From NCBI GenBank assembly GCA_040220235.1, contig JAVJTO010000120.1: DNA of 22,658 bases; one strand, given 5' to 3'. Below the pieces are notes generated by a model, which was not told where the DNA came from, searched no databases, and saw only the letters and a list, made by a program, of their open reading frames with translations. A program made the translations under genes and the position numbers. Source of the stretch: Coleofasciculus sp. B1-GNL1-01 (GTDB lineage Bacteria > Cyanobacteriota > Cyanobacteriia > Cyanobacteriales > Coleofasciculaceae). Below are positions 872 through 22,506 of the stretch, one piece after another (position 1 is the stretch's first letter; each line of letters opens with the position of its first letter).

Positions 872-1362
872 TCACTCTTGAGCGGTAGAAGTCACCGCAT
901 CTACATCGAAAACCACCTCAAACTGTGCATCAGGCATCCATTTTGCCAGAAAGCGTTGGTGATTCTGGGCTTCTGTGCGACTGTAGAAGCGAGCCACCGT
1001 ATAATGTTGAGCATTCGGCAAAAGCCTCACCAGTGTCCAAGGATAATTTTGTTGTTGCCAAAAGCTTTGGTTAGACTTGGGTGATGGTTCGGCTGTGCGC
1101 CCACATCTCCGATGCTCCAAAATAGAACGAATCATCGCTAAAAGTCGCTCTCGCTGTGGCGTTCCATCATTGGGTAACAAACTCCACTCATTGATTGGCG
1201 CGGGTAGCCAAGTTAACCGATAAGTCACTGAATCTTTGCGAATGTGCCAAGACAAGCGACGTGGTTGTTTACGACAGTTGAACCCATCAGAACGAAAAGA
1301 CGCAACAATCCTGTCGCCTTCAGCTTGCAGGCGAAGCCATTGAGGTGTGAGAAACTACCCAT
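872..1362 (-). pseudogene. Cyanobacterial hypothetical protein with apparent 1-nt frameshift right after the ATG (or alternative start; TTG at 1255 gives 127 aa)
   Basis: Frame is open 1354->872 (FLTPQWLRLQAEGDRIVASF...PWTLVRLLPNAQHYTVARF...FEVVFD). ATG 1362-1360 is one base out of frame. The C-terminal part resembles a small hypothetical protein family I recall from cyanobacteria. Confidence 0.6.
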
Positions 1363-13322: not shown

Positions 13323-16103
13323 TTATATCTTGTTTTTCTGAGATTTGTATCGACGCAACCCTTTATCCAATTCCATTGCCCAAATCACAATCGTACTCAT
13401 GGCGAGACTGATGCCTAAATCATACAATGACAACCCTGTGGTATTAAAAATGTCCTGTAAGAAGGGGACATACACCACCGCCAATTGTAATAAAAAGGTT
13501 AAAACAACTGCGCCTAATAAGGGCTTATTTGACAGTAAATTTAAACGAAATAGGGATTCTTGCTCCGATCGCATGCTTTGAGCCAAACCGATACGGGAAA
13601 ATGCCAATATACTAAATACCATCGTCTGCCAAGCTGCTTGACCCGTAAACCAATAGTGATAATCAACGACTAATAAAACAAGTCCTAGGAGTAACCCAAT
13701 CCAAACAATATCTCGACCAACCCCCCGACTAAAGATACTCTCTTGCGGATTATGAGGTGGGCGGGACATGATATTCGGCTCCGCTGGTTCGACGCCTAAT
13801 GCCAAGGCTAACAATCCATCCGCTAATAAATTAATCCAGAGAATTTGTAAGGGAAGTAGCGGTAAAGGCATCCCTAAGAATGGCGCTAATATAATTACCC
13901 ACAGTTCACCACAGTTCCCGGTTAATGTATATTTAATAAACTTACGGACGTTATCGTAAATGACTCGTCCTTCTTGAGTCGCTGCTACAATCGTGGCAAA
14001 GTTATCATCCAACAGCACCATATCGGCGGCTTCTTTCGCCACATCTGTCCCCGTCAACCCCATGGCTACACCAATCTCGGCTTTTTTTAAAGCGGGTGCA
14101 TCGTTGACGCCATCCCCTGTCATTGCCACAACATGTCCCCGGTTTTGCAGCGCTTGGACAATTTCTAATTTGTTCTGGGGCGAAACTCTGGCATAAATAG
14201 ACACCTGATCAACTTTTTCGGTTAACTCTGAGGCGGATAGTTTTGCCATATCCTGACCCGTTAACAGTAAACCATTGGTAGAAATACCTACGTCTGAAGC
14301 AATATGGCGAGCGGTTAGGGGATGATCGCCAGTAATCATGATCGGACGAATTCCCGCTTTCTGACAGGTCAAAACCGCCTGTTTTACTTCTGGACGGGGC
14401 GGATCAATCATACCAATCATACCGATGAAAATCAGGTCTTTTTCGAGAATATCCTCGTCTCGTTCTAGGGGAAGTGTGGCGAGGAGGTGAGAGTCTACGG
14501 GACGAACGGCGATACCCAGGACACGGATTCCATTTTCAGCCAGTTGGTTGTTGGCATGAGAAATTTGCTCATACCTGCTATTATCTAATCGAGTAATCTG
14601 ATCATCGAGCCAAACCTGGCTAGAAATCTCTAAGAGACTATCAACCGCACCTTTAGTAAAGGCAATATAGGGCGCATGATTAAACAGTAATTCCCAAGGC
14701 TTGAGCCAACTTAGTTCCTCTGGACATTTATCGGGGGTGGTGGGAAGGGGGTGAACCGTCGTCATCCGCTTGCGTTCCGCGTCAAAGGGAACCTCGGTTA
14801 TCCGTTCAAAATCATGTTCTATATCCGTTTTCCATAACCCAAAACGGGTGGCGGCGACAATCAAAGCGGTTTCTGTGGGATCACCGAGAACCCGGATTGG
14901 GTTGGATTGCTCCAGATGAAACTCTGCGATCGCATCATTACACAGCGTCGCCGCCGTGAGTAGTAAGGCGACTGTGGGTTCTTCTTTTAACCGTTGGGAC
15001 TGTTCATCCTTTTCCGAGGGCATCATTAACTCATCGAGTTCTGGCATAGTTAACTCAATTTGCTGCCCAATCAAATCCAGACGAGTAACCGTCATCCGAT
15101 TTTGGGTGAGAGTCCCGGTTTTGTCTGAGCAAATTGTGGTGACGGAACCCAAGGTTTCTACGGCGGGTAATTTCCGAATCAGGGCTTTCTGTTTCAGCAT
15201 CCGTTGAGCGCCCAAGGCTAAGGCGATGGTGACAACGGCGGGTAATCCTTCGGGAATCGCCGCAACTGCTAAACTAACCGCCATGAGGAACATTAAGCGA
15301 ACCGATTCCCCCTGGAGTAGTCCCAACCCAAAGATAACCAGGACTAGAATTAAAATCGCGATCGCTAATACCCATCCCAGTTGATCTAATCGTTGCTGGA
15401 GGGGGGTGGCTTCCCGTTCTATCCCTTGAATCGCTTTGGCAATCTGACCCAATTCCGTCTTCATGCCTGTTTCGGTGACGACGGCTAATGCCCGCCCATA
15501 ACTAATCACTGTACCCATATACGCCATATTCTGCCGTTCTGCCAAAGGCAGATTCGCCGTGGCAATCCGTTGGGCAAATTTATCGATGGGTTCAGATTCC
15601 CCGGTGAGGGAGGCTTCTGAGGTGCGGAGGTTGGTACTTTCGAGCAACCGACAGTCCGCCGGGACTAAGTTCCCGGCTTCTAGGATAACGATATCCCCCG
15701 GCACCAGTTCACGGGCGGAAAGTTGCTCTAGGATGCCATCGCGACGCACTTTCACCGTCGGCACCGCCAGCTTTTTCAGCGCTGCGATTGACTGTTCAGC
15801 TTGGTATTCTTGGCGAAAACCGAGGATGGCATTAAATACCACGATTGAGAAGATCGCGATCGCATCCTTATATTCACCCAACACCGCCGAAATCACCGCC
15901 GCTATAATCAACACCACCACAACGGTTGCTGTAAACTGCTCCCAGAGAATTTTCCAGGGACTTTCCAGGGGGCGATCAGTTAACTCATTGAGTCCGTAGA
16001 TGTCCTGACGTTGACGAGCCTCGTTCTCACTTAACCCGATGGCGGCATCGGTATTAAGCTGTTTGAGAACATCGACAAGATTGAGGGTGTACCAGGTAGT
16101 CAT
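13323..16103 (-). CDS. Cation-translocating P-type ATPase (P2A, Ca2+-type)
   Basis: TGES, PEGL, DKTGTLT, KGA, TGD and GDGVND motifs. Confidence 0.96.
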
Positions 16104-16190
16104 TGGTCATTCGTCCTTTGTCCGTTGTCCTTTGTCATTAGTCCTTTGTCTTTTATCCGGTTCAAAAAATAGCCAATGACCAATGACTAA
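16103..16190. repeat. STRR2-like heptamer tract
   Basis: Seven degenerate TT(T/G)GTC(C/A) units at 16103-16151, plus inverted units at about 16173-16190. Confidence 0.75.
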
Positions 16191-16194
16191 AGAT

Positions 16195-18471
16195 TTAATC
16201 CTCTAAATCTTCATTACTTGCCACACTACCGCCACTAACGGTTACCAAGTCAATTTGCTGACGGTAATAATCCACACTCTTAACTTGAACTTCGACATGA
16301 TCGCCCAATCGATACGCTGTGCGGTTTTTGCGACCAACTAAACAAGCATGACGAGAGCGATATTCGTACCAGTCATCTTTTAGGGAACTGACGTGAACCA
16401 ATCCTTCGACTAACAAGTCTTCAATTTCGACAAAGAAGCCATAGGATTGCACGCCTGTAATCAAACCACTGAAGACATTACCCGTGCGTTCTTTCATTTG
16501 CTCGGCTTTTTTCAAGCCCTCTAAATCAATCTCCGCATCTTCGGTGAGTTTTTCCCGGTCATTGAGATGGGGAACCAAGGTGCTTAATTGACTTTCTAAC
16601 TCCTGTTGAGTCTCAGGGGGTAAAACATTCCAGTTAATGTTGCCATGGGCGCTACTGTGGTGGAGATTCACCCGATCTTTCGACCGAGTGGTACGGCGAT
16701 CGCGTCCTTCGCTAAAGGTGTATTCTAAAACCCGTTGAACAAATAAATCCCCATAGCGCCATACGGGGGAGACAGCGTGGCAATAGCTGGTATCCAAGGC
16801 TAAACCAAAGTGCAATCCAGGCTTAGAACTATAGGCGATCGGTTTTAAGGTTCCCTCAAGTAAGTGATTCAGAACTTTAGCCGCCGTTGATTTCGCCAAA
16901 AGTTGGGTCAAGCGCTGATAATCTTGGGACGTGACATCTTCCTCCAAGGATTGCTCGACATCCAGTCCCAAATTGTTGGCTAACTTGAGTAAATCTTCCA
17001 GTTTTTCTAAATCGGGAGTCGGATGCACACAATAAATCCCTGGCAAGGATAAGGCGTGCAAATGGGACGCTATCACTTGATTTGCCAGGATCATCAATTC
17101 TGCCAGGAGCGATCGCAAGGGCATAGAACCCGAAACCTTGATCGCCCCTTGGCGTCCTTCATCTTTACTGTGGGGAGTGGGTCGAGCAATGGCTTCTTGG
17201 GGCAGTGTTCCATTCAATTCAAACGCGCCCCGTTGTTGTCGCACGGCTCTGAGTGCTGGAGATAAGCTGAAGAAGAGTTCCTTGAGTTTGTCTACAATCG
17301 GTGCGAGTTCGGGTTCGCTTTCTTCATGTCCGCCCAACAACGCCTGTGCTTGTTCATAACTGAGTTGGTGATCCACTTGGATGATACTAGGTTGAATTTC
17401 AAATTCAACCAGTTGTCCAGATTCCGTTAACGTGAGCAGCACGGACTGGGTTAAACGATCTTCACCGGGAATCAGGGACACTTGAGATAGGAGTTTTTCC
17501 GGCAGCAGGGGAAGAACCGTATCGCCCAAATACACAGCCGTTCCTCGCTTGCGTGCCTCTCTATCCAGGGGTGAATCGAGGGGTATCCAATGGGCGACAT
17601 CAGCGATATGGATACCTACTTGCCAATTTCCAGTCCTGGTTTTTTCCAAGGTCAAGGCATTTTCGACAATGGTGCTATCTGGGGAGGCTGACTCGCCTTC
17701 TATCGTCATCGTCAGTCGTTTCCGCAGATCCAGGCGCTTTTTTAAGTCTGTTTTGCGGAGGGAGTCGGGTAAGGCTTCAATCGCTTGCAGTACAGGTTCA
17801 GGAAACTGACGGCGTAGGTCATGTTTACAACAGACAATATCCGTATCAGCGGCGTCTTCGGCATCACTCCCTAAGATGCGAGCCACTTTGCCCAGGGGTG
17901 GGTTTTGTCCCAGGGGATAGCGCAGAACTTGCACATGAACCAGATGCTCCACCGCCTCTTCTAGGGGGGCGCTATTGGGTCGTAAATCCAGTTCAAAGAG
18001 CAGGCGGTCATCCAGAGGGACGGCGTGATAACTGCCATCTTCAGCCCGTCGGACTCGTGCTAGTACCGAGGGATTAACTCGTTCGAGAATCAAGCGTACC
18101 TGTCCTTCTGGAGAACGGCGACGACTCCCTTCTTTGGTCACTTTCACCAAAACGCGATCGCCATTCCAAGCGCTACTGAGATGATTCTTTTGAATGTAAA
18201 TATCATCAGCGCCTTCAACATCTTGAATGGCAAAGCAAAATCCTTTACTGGAGCAGCGCAGTTTGGCTTCGACCACATCCTCTTCATAGACTCGTCGATA
18301 TCGACCTCGTTCTTTTTCCAAAATGCCAACTTTCTCCAGCACATCCAGAGCAATCTGGAGTTTTTGCAGGCTTTCGGAGTCCTGACACCCCAGTTTCTTC
18401 TCTAAAACTTTGGGGGCGACTGATTTGTCATCGGTCAAATTGGAGAGTAATGTAGCGATTGAAAATTCCAT
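16195..18471 (-). CDS. RNase II/R family protein, cyanobacterial Zam-like (758 aa)
   Basis: Start MEFSIATLL, cold-shock domain (KGFCFA), RNB domain (HIADV, ELMILAN), S1 domain (GFFV...EGLVHVSSL). Confidence 0.92.
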   Translation of the reverse strand: MEFSIATLLSNLTDDKSVAPKVLEKKLGCQDSESLQKLQIALDVLEKVGILEKERGRYRRVYEEDVVEAKLRCSSKGFCFAIQDVEGADDIYIQKNHLSSAWNGDRVLVKVTKEGSRRRSPEGQVRLILERVNPSVLARVRRAEDGSYHAVPLDDRLLFELDLRPNSAPLEEAVEHLVHVQVLRYPLGQNPPLGKVARILGSDAEDAADTDIVCCKHDLRRQFPEPVLQAIEALPDSLRKTDLKKRLDLRKRLTMTIEGESASPDSTIVENALTLEKTRTGNWQVGIHIADVAHWIPLDSPLDREARKRGTAVYLGDTVLPLLPEKLLSQVSLIPGEDRLTQSVLLTLTESGQLVEFEIQPSIIQVDHQLSYEQAQALLGGHEESEPELAPIVDKLKELFFSLSPALRAVRQQRGAFELNGTLPQEAIARPTPHSKDEGRQGAIKVSGSMPLRSLLAELMILANQVIASHLHALSLPGIYCVHPTPDLEKLEDLLKLANNLGLDVEQSLEEDVTSQDYQRLTQLLAKSTAAKVLNHLLEGTLKPIAYSSKPGLHFGLALDTSYCHAVSPVWRYGDLFVQRVLEYTFSEGRDRRTTRSKDRVNLHHSSAHGNINWNVLPPETQQELESQLSTLVPHLNDREKLTEDAEIDLEGLKKAEQMKERTGNVFSGLITGVQSYGFFVEIEDLLVEGLVHVSSLKDDWYEYRSRHACLVGRKNRTAYRLGDHVEVQVKSVDYYRQQIDLVTVSGGSVASNEDLED

Positions 18472-18543
18472 CCAACAATCCTTTTTCTTTGATCCGGCGT
18501 TTACTTGAATTTGCCTAGTGGCAATACGCTCACGTGAAGGGCG

Positions 18544-18778
18544 CTCCCATTTAACTGGGGTAACGTTTGCCTTGCCAATGTTATGCCTCGGTACTTTCTC
18601 CAGCACACTGGCTTAACCCTGTACACCTGTTTAATGCTGAAGTTCTAGCAGCTCAGGGCTGGCACACACCCCAAGGTAGGAACTTTAACTCTTGGGCATA
18701 ACGTAGACCATGTAGGTCTTAGGCTCGTCAGGTATGGGCTTTTTCAAGCCCACGGCTGTAAGCCGAGAGGTTCCTGAC
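18544..18778 (-). ncRNA. IscB-type omegaRNA (HEARO-like) scaffold, orphan
   Basis: Minus strand GTCAGGAACC..GGGCTTGAAAAAGCCC..CCTGACGAGCCTAAG..CTACGTT..GTGCCAG..TTAAACAG..CCAGTG..AACATTGGCAAGGCAAACGTTACCC. Landmark order as I recall for HEARO, with intact stems. Confidence 0.8.
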
Positions 18779-18943
18779 AGAATGGGATCTGTCAGAATCA
18801 AACCGTCTTTTGCTGACGCGATCGCGATCAAGCGGATAGTGTTTGAGCTATCCAGTTTCAGGTTGACGGACACCTATTAACCCACGACCTGTTACGGATA
18901 ATTGCCGATCTTCGCTCGCTTAATCGCGTTGCGGCAAGGATGC

Positions 18944-20250
18944 GTAAACTACCCAACACCAACCCTTCCGGGTATAGTGTGGGCTTTTAGTAGCCCTGGT
19001 TCTATTGCACAGGACAATAGTTCCGAGCCTCCAGGCTGGTTTACTGCACAGCCCCATAACTCAATCATTTTTGCTCCATTAAAGTCCGCATCCCCTAGCC
19101 ATCCACACACCAAGTTTGTGCATTTAAACTGCTTGTTAGTTCTCTGTCCAATATGCAAGCAACAATGACAGGTCTGGCTGGTATAGGCTGGCGGTATGGC
19201 GATCATCTCAATCCCTTCTTTTATTCCTTTGTACTCTAGGAATATCCTTAACTGATAGAATGCCCAGGAATTTGACCGTCTTCTTTCGCTCTTTGTCCTG
19301 GGTTTTTCATTTGTTCGTTCCCGGATTCCGGTTAAGTCTTCAATCGCCACCGCCGACTTTAATGCCTTTGCTTCTTCTATGATTGATTTACTGATATTGT
19401 GGTTTATCCATTTCTGAAATCTTCTCTCGCGCCCCGATAACCGTTTCAAGACAGTCCGGCATCTTCGCCTTGTTGTCCTTGTGCCTTGGGTTGCTTTCTT
19501 TTGTAGAGAAGCTCTCACTCTAGTGTATTTATCTCGGGTCTTGTTTAGTTGCTTTCCCTCCCATCCTTTATCTGTACTGGTTTTCGCTATCTCCCTGCGT
19601 CCCAAGTCTACCCCAATCACAATGTTTGATTTAATCGGTTTGGGCGGCTCACTTTTGAGTTGTATATGCACATACCAATACCCGTCCCGATGCAGGCAAA
19701 CTTGGGCGCTGGTTGGTTTTTTTCCTGTCAATTTGTTCCGATGGTAGTTACTGGCACGAAGCAGACACCTTACCCGCTTCCCAATCGTGCTTAGGCTTAC
19801 TGTCCAGTCTTTCTCGAAAAACTGAAATGTTCTGGCATCACAGTCAAAAGTTGTCGGCTTAAAAGCGTTCACTTTTTTGCCTTTGTGTTTGGCTGTTAAG
19901 CGATTGGCGGCTACCCGGGCACAAGCTCTCACTACATGGTTTGATGTCAGCCCCCATTGGGCTTTGATGTCGTGGTAACAAACTGCCTGGATTGAATTTC
20001 GATTCGTTAGCTTTGGGTTAACTGTGGCATTTATCGCGTTACAAGCGGCAGCAAAACTTCCCGCCGTTTCCATGAGCAGCCTTTGTTGCTCTTCGGTGGG
20101 TTGAAGTCTTACAACTATTGTCAATACTTGCTTCACGTTTATCCAAAACTCACGAAAATGAGTATAATTCAAACTTTAACAGACTGGCAATTCCTCCCCG
20201 CGTTGAATCACAGATTACAATGGGGGCTTCCTTGCCGGAGTAGGTGAGTT
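18944..20250 (-). mobile_element. tnpB-only IS200/IS605-family element (IS1341-like)
   Basis: Right-end hairpin ending GTAGTTTAC at 18944. Left-end GGCAAGGAAGCCCC...GGGGAGGAATTGCC at 20186-20237. No tnpA. Left boundary approximate. Confidence 0.85.
18949..20136 (-). CDS. tnpB: RNA-guided endonuclease TnpB (395 aa from GTG)
   Basis: RuvC D (GVDLG), E (IEDL), D (DADFNGA); zinc finger YTSQTCHCC...CTNLVC. Confidence 0.95.
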   Translation of the reverse strand: MKQVLTIVVRLQPTEEQQRLLMETAGSFAAACNAINATVNPKLTNRNSIQAVCYHDIKAQWGLTSNHVVRACARVAANRLTAKHKGKKVNAFKPTTFDCDARTFQFFEKDWTVSLSTIGKRVRCLLRASNYHRNKLTGKKPTSAQVCLHRDGYWYVHIQLKSEPPKPIKSNIVIGVDLGRREIAKTSTDKGWEGKQLNKTRDKYTRVRASLQKKATQGTRTTRRRCRTVLKRLSGRERRFQKWINHNISKSIIEEAKALKSAVAIEDLTGIRERTNEKPRTKSERRRSNSWAFYQLRIFLEYKGIKEGIEMIAIPPAYTSQTCHCCLHIGQRTNKQFKCTNLVCGWLGDADFNGAKMIELWGCAVNQPGGSELLSCAIEPGLLKAHTIPGRVGVG

Positions 20251-20482
20251 ACACTCAACTGGGACAGTATGTCATTATTGTAGATTCTCGTGCCCCTACC
20301 TTGGAAGTCAACTGTCAAAAGTTATGCATTTGTGGCGTTAAATGTCTGTTGGTATGCCGAAGTGCAACAGACGCCAAGAATTGGTAAATTTGTACTAAAT
20401 CGCCGTTGATTAAAGGGTAGCTTGCACTTACCCCTTCTTGTCCTAGGGAGTTTCCCAAGCCCCAGGACTGTGGTTCGGGTCT

Positions 20483-20501
20483 ATGTAACATTATGTTACA
20501 T
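20483..20501. promoter_or_regulatory. 19-bp palindrome, candidate transcription-factor site
   Basis: ATGTAACAT-T-ATGTTACAT, about 100 bp upstream of ATG 20602. Confidence 0.45.
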
Positions 20502-20601
20502 GTTTGTGCAGACAGGCTCTCACCGTACTAATACTACTGTCGCTGTCTATGCCAACTGTCCAAAATGTACCCTGTTCATGTACCGCGTTGAGTCAAGTTT
20601 T

Positions 20602-21489
20602 ATGAATCCTACATTGAATAAATTCCGAGTTTCTTATCCTCAAGGGAGTCTGATCAGTGATCTTTTAGCGATCGATCACGGTCAGTATATTGTGCGCGTC
20701 AGTGTGGAAATTGATGGCGTAACCCGATCAACAGGTCTAGCTGCGGCTCAAACGGTGGAACTAGCAGAAGACCAAGCCAGACAACGAGCGATAACTGTTT
20801 TAGCGGTTGATCGGGAGAGTTCTACAGACACCGAAACATCTCTACCTCATAGCCACACCCAAACATCAGTGGCGGCTGCTGAGGTTCCCTCATCCCCTGA
20901 GTCGATTCCTAACTCGGCTCCCGCTTTTGCGGCAAAAAGGATGGTATCAAAACCTGAGGGTGAAGATACTCCAAGTCCTAGTCCAATCGATACCCACCCG
21001 ATATCGGCAAAACCCAGTCCACCCCCTGAACCAACGGAACCCCTCCCAAAGACGGTTGAACCACCTTCCCCCCCTAAGACAAAACCCAGTCCCCCCCCGG
21101 AACCGACAGTAACACTTCCTGAGACCGTTGAACCGCCCTCCTTAACGGAAGACGTATCAACATCAGAGACGCCTCTGTTTAAGGAAGAGACACCAACCCC
21201 AGTGGGAGTCACTCAATCGTCGTTAGAGCCAGAATCAACACCACCGCCACCTCCTGCACAAAAGGAAGCTGAACCCGATATCCAGAGTCAACCCAAATCC
21301 GAAACACCCATTGACTTTTCCGAAATTATTGCCCGAACCAATGTGGAACTCAAACGGCTAGGGTGGACGAATCAACAGGGACGAGATTACCTGATCGAAA
21401 CTTATGGTAAGCGATCGCGTCAGTTGTTAACCGATGAAGAGTTACTCGACTTCTTGCATCATCTGGAATTGGAACCGACACCCGACTAA
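20602..21489 (+). CDS. Conserved cyanobacterial hypothetical protein with Pro-rich linker (295 aa)
   Basis: N-domain YPQGSLIS...AEDQARQRA and C-domain ELKRLGWT..GRDYL..TYGKRSR..LTDEEL. 72-nt tandem duplication at 21009-21142. Confidence 0.85.
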   Translation: MNPTLNKFRVSYPQGSLISDLLAIDHGQYIVRVSVEIDGVTRSTGLAAAQTVELAEDQARQRAITVLAVDRESSTDTETSLPHSHTQTSVAAAEVPSSPESIPNSAPAFAAKRMVSKPEGEDTPSPSPIDTHPISAKPSPPPEPTEPLPKTVEPPSPPKTKPSPPPEPTVTLPETVEPPSLTEDVSTSETPLFKEETPTPVGVTQSSLEPESTPPPPPAQKEAEPDIQSQPKSETPIDFSEIIARTNVELKRLGWTNQQGRDYLIETYGKRSRQLLTDEELLDFLHHLELEPTPD

Positions 21490-21504
21490 TCAGATTTGAG
21501 GAAA

Positions 21505-21567
21505 GTAGGGGCGGGTTGAGTCACTTTCGTCTTGCTGTTGATGATAACGTTTGTGTAAAACCCGCCC
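21505..21567. repeat. Long REP-like inverted repeat between convergent genes
   Basis: GTAGGGGCGGGTT...AACCCGCCC. Confidence 0.75.
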
Positions 21568-21615
21568 AGACCGAGGTGTAGGGACGGGTTTCACGCTTGC
21601 CAAAATTAAAATTGG

Positions 21616-22224
21616 CTAGCCCACCGTTGCGGGAGTCCGGGTGGCGGAAGGACGCCGATTAATTACTTGATCAATTAAGCGGTAGTCCTTGGCTTCCTCG
21701 GCTGACATAAAGAAGTCCCGTTCTGTATCTTCAGCAATTCGATCTAGGGGTTGATCGGTATGTTCAGCCAGAAGCTGATTCAGCCGTTGTTTGTGATACA
21801 GGATTTCTTTTGCTTGAATCTCAATATCACTCGCTTGTCCTTGAGCGCCGCCTAAGGGCTGGTGAATCATAATTCTGGAATGGGGTAAGCTCATCCGTTT
21901 ACCCTTCGCCCCAGCACTCAGCAGAAACGCACCCATACTCGCCGCCAAACCCACACAGATGGTGCAGACATCGGGACGGATTTGATTCATGGTATCGTAA
22001 ATCCCCATTCCTGCGGTTACAGAACCGCCTGGGGAGTTGATGTAGAGATAAATGTCTTTTTCGGGGTCATCGGCTTCCAGGAATAAGAGTTGAGCCACGA
22101 TGAGGTTCGCCAAATCTGAGTCAACCTGTTGTCCCAGAAAAACAATGCGTTCCCGCAGTAGACGAGAGTAGATGTCAAAGGCGCGTTCACCGCGACCGGA
22201 TTGTTCGATAACTGTAGGAATCAT
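21616..22224 (-). CDS. clpP: ATP-dependent Clp protease proteolytic subunit (202 aa)
   Basis: [42 protein letters not shown]. Confidence 0.97.
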
Positions 22225-22300
22225 GCCAATTACGGTAAGTTTATGCTCATATTCTTCTAGATTGTAGCGATTGACGCCGGATGAGGGGTGGAGGGGTTGG

Positions 22301-22336
22301 GGGAGATGGGGAAGATGAGGGAGATGGGGAAGATGG
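22301..22336. repeat. 9-mer tandem repeat GG(G/A)AGATG(G/A) x4
   Basis: Directly visible upstream of clpP. Confidence 0.8.
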
Positions 22337-22377
22337 GGTTCTGAACTGTTGCTGCTTAAATTGTAGAAAATTGTAGA

Positions 22378-22506
22378 TATAGCGCTACGCGCTAGGCAAT
22401 AGGCAATAGGCAATAGGCAATAGTGAAGACAAAAGCTTACCTGAAAAGGGATTGAGCGATTTTAATTTTTCTTGATTTTGTCCTAACGTGTGTGCGTAGT
22501 GCTATA
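22378..22506. mobile_element. MITE-like element with (GGCAATA)4
   Basis: Both ends identical to those of 4422-4566. Confidence 0.8.

Follow-up and report, generated by a model that had tools for sequence, protein, structure and literature searches.

The locus lies in a window of 22,658 nt (the whole stretch of DNA analysed), which is contig C120 of the 8.66-Mb assembly of Coleofasciculus sp. B1-GNL1-01; the genome encodes PsbO, NdhK, and an slr1353-family protein, a gene content that points to a cyanobacterium. Read on the minus strand, the order is tnpB, 165 nt of intergenic DNA, a HEARO sequence, and a VacB/RNase II-family gene, with the intact tnpB gene just upstream of HEARO on the same strand. 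The features are listed below; a slash within a sequence marks a junction or a target site.

18944-20243, minus strand: complete tnpB-only IS200/IS605-type element, 1300 bp long, preceded directly by TCAC (20247-20244) and ending in ...TTTAC.
18949-20172, minus strand: tnpB ORF, 407 aa from the first TTG, matching Pfam OrfB_IS605 and Cas12f1-like TNB and NCBIfam guided_TnpB (176.8 bits).
18779-18943, minus strand: host intergenic DNA of 165 nt that separates the two elements; it opens with the TnpB guide position and closes with the IscB guide position.
18779-18798, minus strand: guide-position sequence (...ATTCTGACAGATCCCATTCT), the host flank immediately 5′ of the scaffold, conserved in element-free relatives.
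18560-18778, minus strand: HEARO/IscB omegaRNA scaffold, full Rfam model (RF02033).
18533-18559, minus strand: stretch by which the omegaRNA exceeds the Rfam model on its 3′ side, made up of the hairpin CCCAG..TGGG followed by one half, the 5′ one, of a terminal hairpin (GCGCCCTTCACG).
18530-18533, no strand assigned: element/host junction CACG/TGAG, read as a deletion scar, where relatives continue and host homology resumes.
18472-18532, minus strand: the part of the RNase gene's host leader that is kept, with AAGGA ahead of the ATG; homologous in relatives with and without the element.
16195-18471, minus strand: zam-like gene for a VacB/RNase II family 3′-5′ exoribonuclease of 758 aa (Pfam RNB, OB_RNB, CSD2, and S1).
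18400-20250, no strand assigned: tract nearly identical, by mismatch counts, among the six genomes with both elements.

A covariance-model scan of the whole window returned HEARO (RF02033) as the sole Rfam family above its gathering score. The match, at 18778..18560 on the minus strand, scored 133 bits against a gathering cut-off of 83 (E = 7.5e-28), and its alignment is untruncated, spanning model positions 1-211 of 211. An earlier note on this DNA, made from the letters alone, had called an IscB-type omegaRNA here and had named the Rfam HEARO model as the way to check it; the match over the full model, above the gathering threshold, bears out that call. All six stems drawn in the note are present in the covariance-model alignment, at the same coordinates and on the minus strand, as follows.

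GTCAGG paired with CCTGAC, 18778-73 with 18732-27.
CGGCT paired with AGCCG.
GGGCTT-GAAA-AAGCCC, a hairpin.
AGACC paired with GGTCT.
GTTATGCC paired with GGCATAAC, 18702-695 with 18587-580.
CTTGGGG paired with CCCTGAG.

For the pseudoknot, the Rfam model predicts pairing of the distal UUGGC (18578-74) with GCCUA (18724-20), where the note had proposed the hairpin-loop GCCA as the partner. The next ORF 3′ of HEARO is the RNB-domain gene, whose ATG at 18471 lies 88 nt past the end of the Rfam match and 61 nt past the element/host junction. Thus the earlier statement that no iscB follows in cis was correct, the next ORF being that of an RNB/S1 exoribonuclease, which scores above the cut-off of NCBIfam TIGR00358 and below that of the RNase R equivalog.

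The ends of the element were placed by comparison with six closest copies from sister genomes (L060-L065), which are 80-83% identical to the window copy and all begin at GTCAGG. As similarity to these copies starts at GTCAGG and host homology in element-free relatives stops at 18779, the 5′ boundary of HEARO at 18778 is exact, with a left junction of ...CCCATTCT/GTCAGG and a 5′-GT(CA) terminus present in the window copy. The 5′ end of the scaffold therefore coincides with the transposon end, and the guide position is flanking DNA, as the note had predicted in ending its guide at 18779. At the other side, all six relatives extend past the Rfam model through a small hairpin, of which CCCAG..TGGG is the window copy's version and which shows compensatory changes among the related copies (alignment columns 254-265, beyond the Rfam model). 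The 3′ extension is common to L060 and L062 as far as 18533, and five of the six relatives continue past the equivalent of 18533 with a further hairpin, L061 differing. The window copy ends CACG/TGAG at 18533, in the loop of this second and last hairpin, with GCGCCCTTCACG as the last shared sequence, and then runs into host DNA (TGAGCGTATTGCC...); where it stops, the relatives go on with ...CACGGGGCAA and a tail of ~310 nt. This tail is shared by L062-L065 and in part by the genome's own C6 copy, and it ends ...GGGGTTTCCATTCACCCCC...AATTTTCG/ATGA. The CG-3′ terminus with its subterminal hairpin before ATGA, found in the related copies, is absent from the window copy, so the note was right that no other IS end follows: the far end of the closest relatives (...CG/ATGA) is missing. 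Without this end, a Y1 transposase can neither excise nor move the window copy. Host homology to two element-free relatives (G005 and G008) restarts at 18530, and the trinucleotide ACG is common to both partners at the 18533 junction, which fits an illegitimate deletion. Relative to the element-free relatives, the window type lacks ~270 nt of ancestral host DNA.

None of the six closest copies has an RRXRR or HNH domain downstream. In L061 (positions 990-1060, plus strand; species G001), ~25 codons of an IscB N-terminus (MFVFVVDKNRNALNPCHPARARK...) stand between the omegaRNA and the shared tail; it represents an intermediate stage of nuclease-gene loss. The tail-bearing copies are thus internal-deletion derivatives of ISC transposons. 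The tail itself has a few matches in the genome, none of them beside a listed IscB locus. The ORF-less relatives retain the fold: of 54 predicted pairs, 17 show compensatory changes, which may predate the loss of the ORF.

We further compared the site in relatives, searching a 701-nt region against 40 related genomes and then comparing 19 orthologous loci; within the genus, eight other species (G001-G008) were covered. Two of these, G003 and G001, are collinear with the window. Another three, G007, G004, and G002, retain HEARO (128.5, 133, and 106.8 bits, respectively) but carry differing internal deletions of tnpB (19741>19048 in G007; 19943>19236 and 19027>18906 in G004; 19999>19702 and 18977>18751 in G002), the last of which reaches into HEARO, removing its nt 1-27 together with the guide position and the flank. 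G006 is without the tnpB element (20244 joined to 18945) and holds only nt 1-72 of HEARO, with host DNA, ATGATGACTG, directly after the 72-nt stub. Both elements are absent from G005 and G008, whose flanks are 84-89% identical to the window and which have 498 and 278 nt of unrelated host DNA, respectively, and no HEARO between the window-equivalents of 18779 and 18530. The empty site of G008 reads ...CCTATTCT-ATTTCT-ATGACTG, with the ATGA 6 nt beyond the junction. A member of another genus (G024) has 334 nt of host DNA at the site, also with no HEARO. None of the 14 loci L046-L059 contained HEARO at the gathering threshold, none of the genomes searched keeps iscB at the site, and metagenome contigs, scanned for the flank/HEARO junction as an exact pattern, gave 0 matches. 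The window type, G006, and G002 thus represent three independent truncations of one insertion.

In G008 and G006 (L048:1852-2004 and L046:1833-1994, minus strand), zam is directly preceded by a possible ORF of 50-52 codons that includes a hydrophobic stretch and begins at the ATGA adjoining the insertion site. In the G005 version (L047:2116-2220, minus strand), the start is ACG and a stop comes early; in the window type, the region is deleted. The possible ORF matched no Pfam or NCBIfam family, and we do not claim it as a gene. The ancestral leader region of G005 (L047), between the window-equivalents of 18779 and 18530, is ~220 nt longer than that of G008, the extra piece being seemingly flanked by inverted GGCAGAAGG and CCTTCTGCC, and this piece may be another small mobile insert.

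The neighbouring tnpB element, on which the note is silent, also has empty sites, in G006, G005, and G008, where window position 20244 is joined straight to ~18945-18938. Its tnpB stop codon lies 3 nt before the element end, so the TnpB omegaRNA scaffold must sit inside the 3′ end of the ORF; the TnpB guide position would be GCATCCTTGCCGC... (18943 downward). The host stretch of 165 nt that separates it from HEARO is 84-89% identical in congeners with neither element; the figure for another genus is 73%, over 104 nt. The host DNA that the TnpB element splits (18779-18943 and 20244-20320) is conserved to this degree and has a TACAAT-like motif near 20280, which the other genus shares; the RNase gene may have had its ancestral promoter and a long leader here. 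A scan for sigma-70-type consensus sites only, and thus a weak one, found no promoter-like site on the minus strand of 18472-18948. An equally weak consensus scan of that strand from tnpB through HEARO to zam found no terminator-like site, so HEARO would be co-transcribed with zam if upstream transcription reads through.

Across the genome, the HEARO model gave 19 matches, 13 of them above the cut-off, among which the window copy ranks fifth. Eight of the 13 are linked to IscB, with an RRXRR frame starting 29-50 nt after HEARO, and HNH was confirmed in all four linked loci scanned; the window HEARO outscores four of these eight. The remaining five, the window copy included, lack a nuclease gene, and each lies directly before a host gene. 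The other four (C6:80876, C21:29654, C30:84682, and C53:110862 in G000) are followed by genes for an NdhK-like protein, an SrpI-like encapsulin, psbO, and a metallophosphoesterase. Placement of ORF-less HEARO before host genes fits insertion at ATGA start codons. RRXRR (PF14239) gave 26 matches, 13 in open frames of 378-482 aa, and Y1 transposase gave 13. iscB is thus abundant, and a partner in trans is available. No second copy with the same boundaries exists in the 8.66-Mb genome; the best other match to the window copy is the ORF-less C6 copy, 78% identical over 189 nt, while the closest IscB-linked scaffolds are 72-78% identical to the window HEARO over 76-145 nt. At these identities, the window copy is old relative to its paralogues. 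The earlier note had tied a decaying remnant to patchy presence among strains and a genome free of iscB; presence is indeed patchy among the relatives, a pointer to decay, but the 26 RRXRR matches show that the genome is not iscB-free.

We then compared the window with the five other carriers of both elements (L066-L070). Within 18400-20250, mismatches to the window numbered 4/1851, 8/1851, 6/1159, 4/1025, and 7/1330 (0.2-0.5%), compared to 6.1-7.5% left of 18200 and 4.6-11% right of 20400 (comparison over 13400-22400). The edges of this tract are sharp, at ~18430 or 18270 on one side and ~20254-20350 on the other. Besides the tnpB element (20243-18944) and the HEARO remnant, on which it is centred, the tract takes in the 165-nt flank and the very start of zam; it reaches ~500 nt beyond the TnpB element on the guide side and only 10-110 nt on the other. 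Since that flank is nothing but host DNA, homologous recombination must have carried the block from species to species. The exchange would have come after the truncation and the tnpB insertion, and the differing tnpB deletions later. Given 0.2-0.5% inside the tract against 4.6-11% outside, the apparent conservation of HEARO reflects recent transfer, not selection. Among G003, G001, G007, and G004, HEARO has 4 substitutions in 876 sites versus 18 in 5010 for the rest of the tract; with <10 substitutions per genome in the tract, a selection test on these counts has almost no power and neutrality is unproven, and the substitutions give no support for a putative constraint on HEARO. The RNA is intact in five of the six carriers, and the adjacent tnpB is hit by deletions in three.

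Taken together, these data show that the stretch 18778-18533 on the minus strand is a genuine IscB-type omegaRNA gene. It is most likely what is left, immobile and with no function under selection, of an IS200/IS605-superfamily transposon of the ISC type (IscB/IsrB). The order of events, which we infer from nine genomes that recombine mutually, would be as follows. An ISC element, either full-length or by then reduced by deletion to an ORF-less derivative, would have inserted with its 5′-GTCA end after ...CCATTCT, at or next to the ATGA that starts the possible 50-codon ORF upstream of the RNase gene. In the window lineage, a deletion at the ACG microhomology would then have fused the last hairpin, within its loop (18533), to the host sequence that begins 61 nt ahead of the zam ATG, probably taking the 3′ part of the element and ~270 nt of host DNA. 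The tnpB-only IS would have inserted later, 165 nt upstream, after which the ~1.85-kb block of tnpB IS, flank, HEARO remnant, and zam start would have recombined among six species, and tnpB would afterwards have suffered differing deletions in three of them. Several points speak against such a leftover: the scaffold is complete and outscores four of the eight IscB-linked copies; the deletion stopped only ~27 nt past the model, which could reflect retention of the RNA; the RNA is intact in five of six carriers, whereas the tnpB beside it is damaged in three; and the many IscB genes and 13 Y1-transposase matches make a partner in trans available. The fold kept in the ORF-less relatives fits continued use of such RNAs as a class.

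The earlier note had taken the RNA for either a stand-alone trans-acting guide or an omegaRNA domesticated as a leader; its omegaRNA identity, the absence of a cis iscB and of another IS end, and the guide end all held, but neither of these two roles is supported. In the first, the remnant would carry a flank-derived guide, be loaded by the genome's IscB, and cut the uninterrupted allele (...GACAGATCCCATTCT next to ATGA), whether in other copies of the chromosome or in DNA entering the cell, whereupon repair would copy the insertion-bearing allele; such an immobile, homing-only guide might have helped to spread the 1.85-kb tract. We regard this as unlikely. The full-length scaffold would suit it, as would the plentiful genes for IscB with RRXRR and HNH (8 HEARO-linked above the cut-off, 26 RRXRR matches), the 72-78% identity of IscB-linked scaffolds over 76-145 nt, the centring of the near-identity tract on both elements, and the kept fold of ORF-less relatives; PATE-like elements, according to Meers et al. 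(2023, 10.1101/2023.03.14.532601), often carry omegaRNAs that would likewise need use in trans. However, the last hairpin is cut in its loop, and the guide finds no target in the genome: with 0 mismatches, the guide-position sequence matches its own locus only in the 8.66-Mb genome, and a 16-mer with 1 mismatch has a single match, at C6:27021, where ~0.2 are expected by chance. These 16-20 nt are host flank, present also in element-free relatives. In the empty-site alleles of G008 and G005, the guide match is set apart from ATGA by an additional 6 nt, and there are mismatches as well, so these alleles would not serve as targets in their present form. G002 has lost the guide position and the first stem with no visible consequence, and the intact TnpB IS next door would be an equally good or better driver of the tract. 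That a transposition-dead omegaRNA, loaded by IscB as a homing-only guide, drove the 1.85-kb allele through six species together with the TnpB element, with the sharp-edged tract as the trace of this drive, is accordingly a speculation that we consider improbable.

We think it quite unlikely that the zam leader has recruited the omegaRNA fold for a role in cis, such as that of a structured 5′ UTR acting on stability or translation. The RNA and zam share a strand, with 61-88 nt from the RNA to the ATG and no terminator-like site between tnpB, HEARO, and zam, and four other ORF-less HEARO copies also stand directly before host genes. Moreover, since ~270 nt of the ancestral leader region is deleted, the present zam leader must start in or upstream of the element. 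On the other hand, zam is intact alike with the ancestral leader, with the 72-nt stub, and with the 5′-truncated copy that lacks the first 27 nt and the guide, and HEARO shows no excess conservation within the tract. Position before genes would follow from the N/ATGA target of this ISC group, and selection is unnecessary to explain it; furthermore, the scan of 18472-18948 gave no promoter-like site on the minus strand. A complete, mobile, ORF-less mini-transposon of ~250 nt, similar to PATEs, is extremely improbable: ORF-less HEARO elements with both ends do occur in the genus, but the window copy is without the shared tail, the subterminal hairpin, and the ...CG/ATGA end, the host DNA at its right junction (CACG/TGAG) sits ~270 nt from the left junction in element-free relatives, and its best other match in the genome (78% over 189 nt) does not share its boundaries.

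We also inspected window positions 17800-20400 in four sequencing runs (X3, X4, X5, and X14) as assembled contigs, three of them from the 11 runs on record as RNA and one of unspecified kind. The libraries labelled as RNA have contigs of up to 78 kb, which means that DNA is present. Environmental runs labelled as metatranscriptomes contain a G002-like allele (joints 18734>18980 and 19701>19999) in contigs of 4-5 kb, and a further run contains a G007-like allele (joint 19047>19741); such deletion variants thus occur in natural samples.

A 133-bit covariance-model match "conserved" in six species would normally suggest function. Here, the conservation stems from a recently exchanged tract, and the RNA would be a truncated passenger, which calls for caution in reading such matches. 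The site offers a natural series, with empty, 72-nt stub, 5′-truncated, and 3′-truncated states, both with and without the TnpB neighbour, and a 0.2-0.5% tract in a 5-11% background makes it a convenient site for asking whether the RNA-guided nucleases of IS200/IS605 elements promote the spread of alleles between strains.

ORF-less HEARO copies and stand-alone omegaRNAs have reportedly been described before, by Weinberg and colleagues in 2009 and by Altae-Tran and colleagues in 2021. A limited literature search, in which the Greek-letter term was unsearchable, found no papers on truncated or orphan IscB omegaRNAs before host genes. The window RNA resembles known HEARO/IscB omegaRNAs (RF02033) in its full-length model match and in having its 5′ end at the transposon end, but differs in that no iscB or isrB follows it and that its last 3′ hairpin, past the model, is cut. 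RF02033 matches occur in 65% of the 5′ UTRs of the nucleases of Goltsman et al. (2022, PMC9755519), and Meers et al. (2023, bioRxiv 10.1101/2023.03.14.532601) have HEARO bounded by the transposon end upstream of iscB. Among ISC transposons with an N/ATGA target, ISC1-1_MA of Microcystis has 5′-GT(CA) and CG-3′ ends and the target N/ATGA, verified by Kapitonov, Makarova, and Koonin (2016, PMC4810608). The window copy shares the 5′-GTCA terminus and may share an insertion at or next to ATGA before a host reading frame, and its closest relatives end ...CG before ATGA, whereas it has itself no 3′ terminus, hairpin, or nuclease gene. With PATE-like IS200/IS605 elements, as described by Meers et al., it has in common a nuclease-less omegaRNA gene with nucleases and Y1 transposases elsewhere in the genome, but PATEs keep both ends and the window copy keeps one. 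The neighbour at 20243-18944 is a tnpB-only IS200/IS605 element (IS1341/"IS605B") by its guided_TnpB match, its exact empty site, and the TCAC before it; it is separate from the HEARO remnant, with which it has no more than the intervening 165 nt of host DNA in common. Both omegaRNA elements that lack an ORF and decayed copies of IS200/IS605 are already known, and this locus is a further, truncated example. Less ordinary is the sharply bounded tract around two elements of RNA-guided nucleases in six species, which could reflect nuclease-assisted spread or plain recombination.
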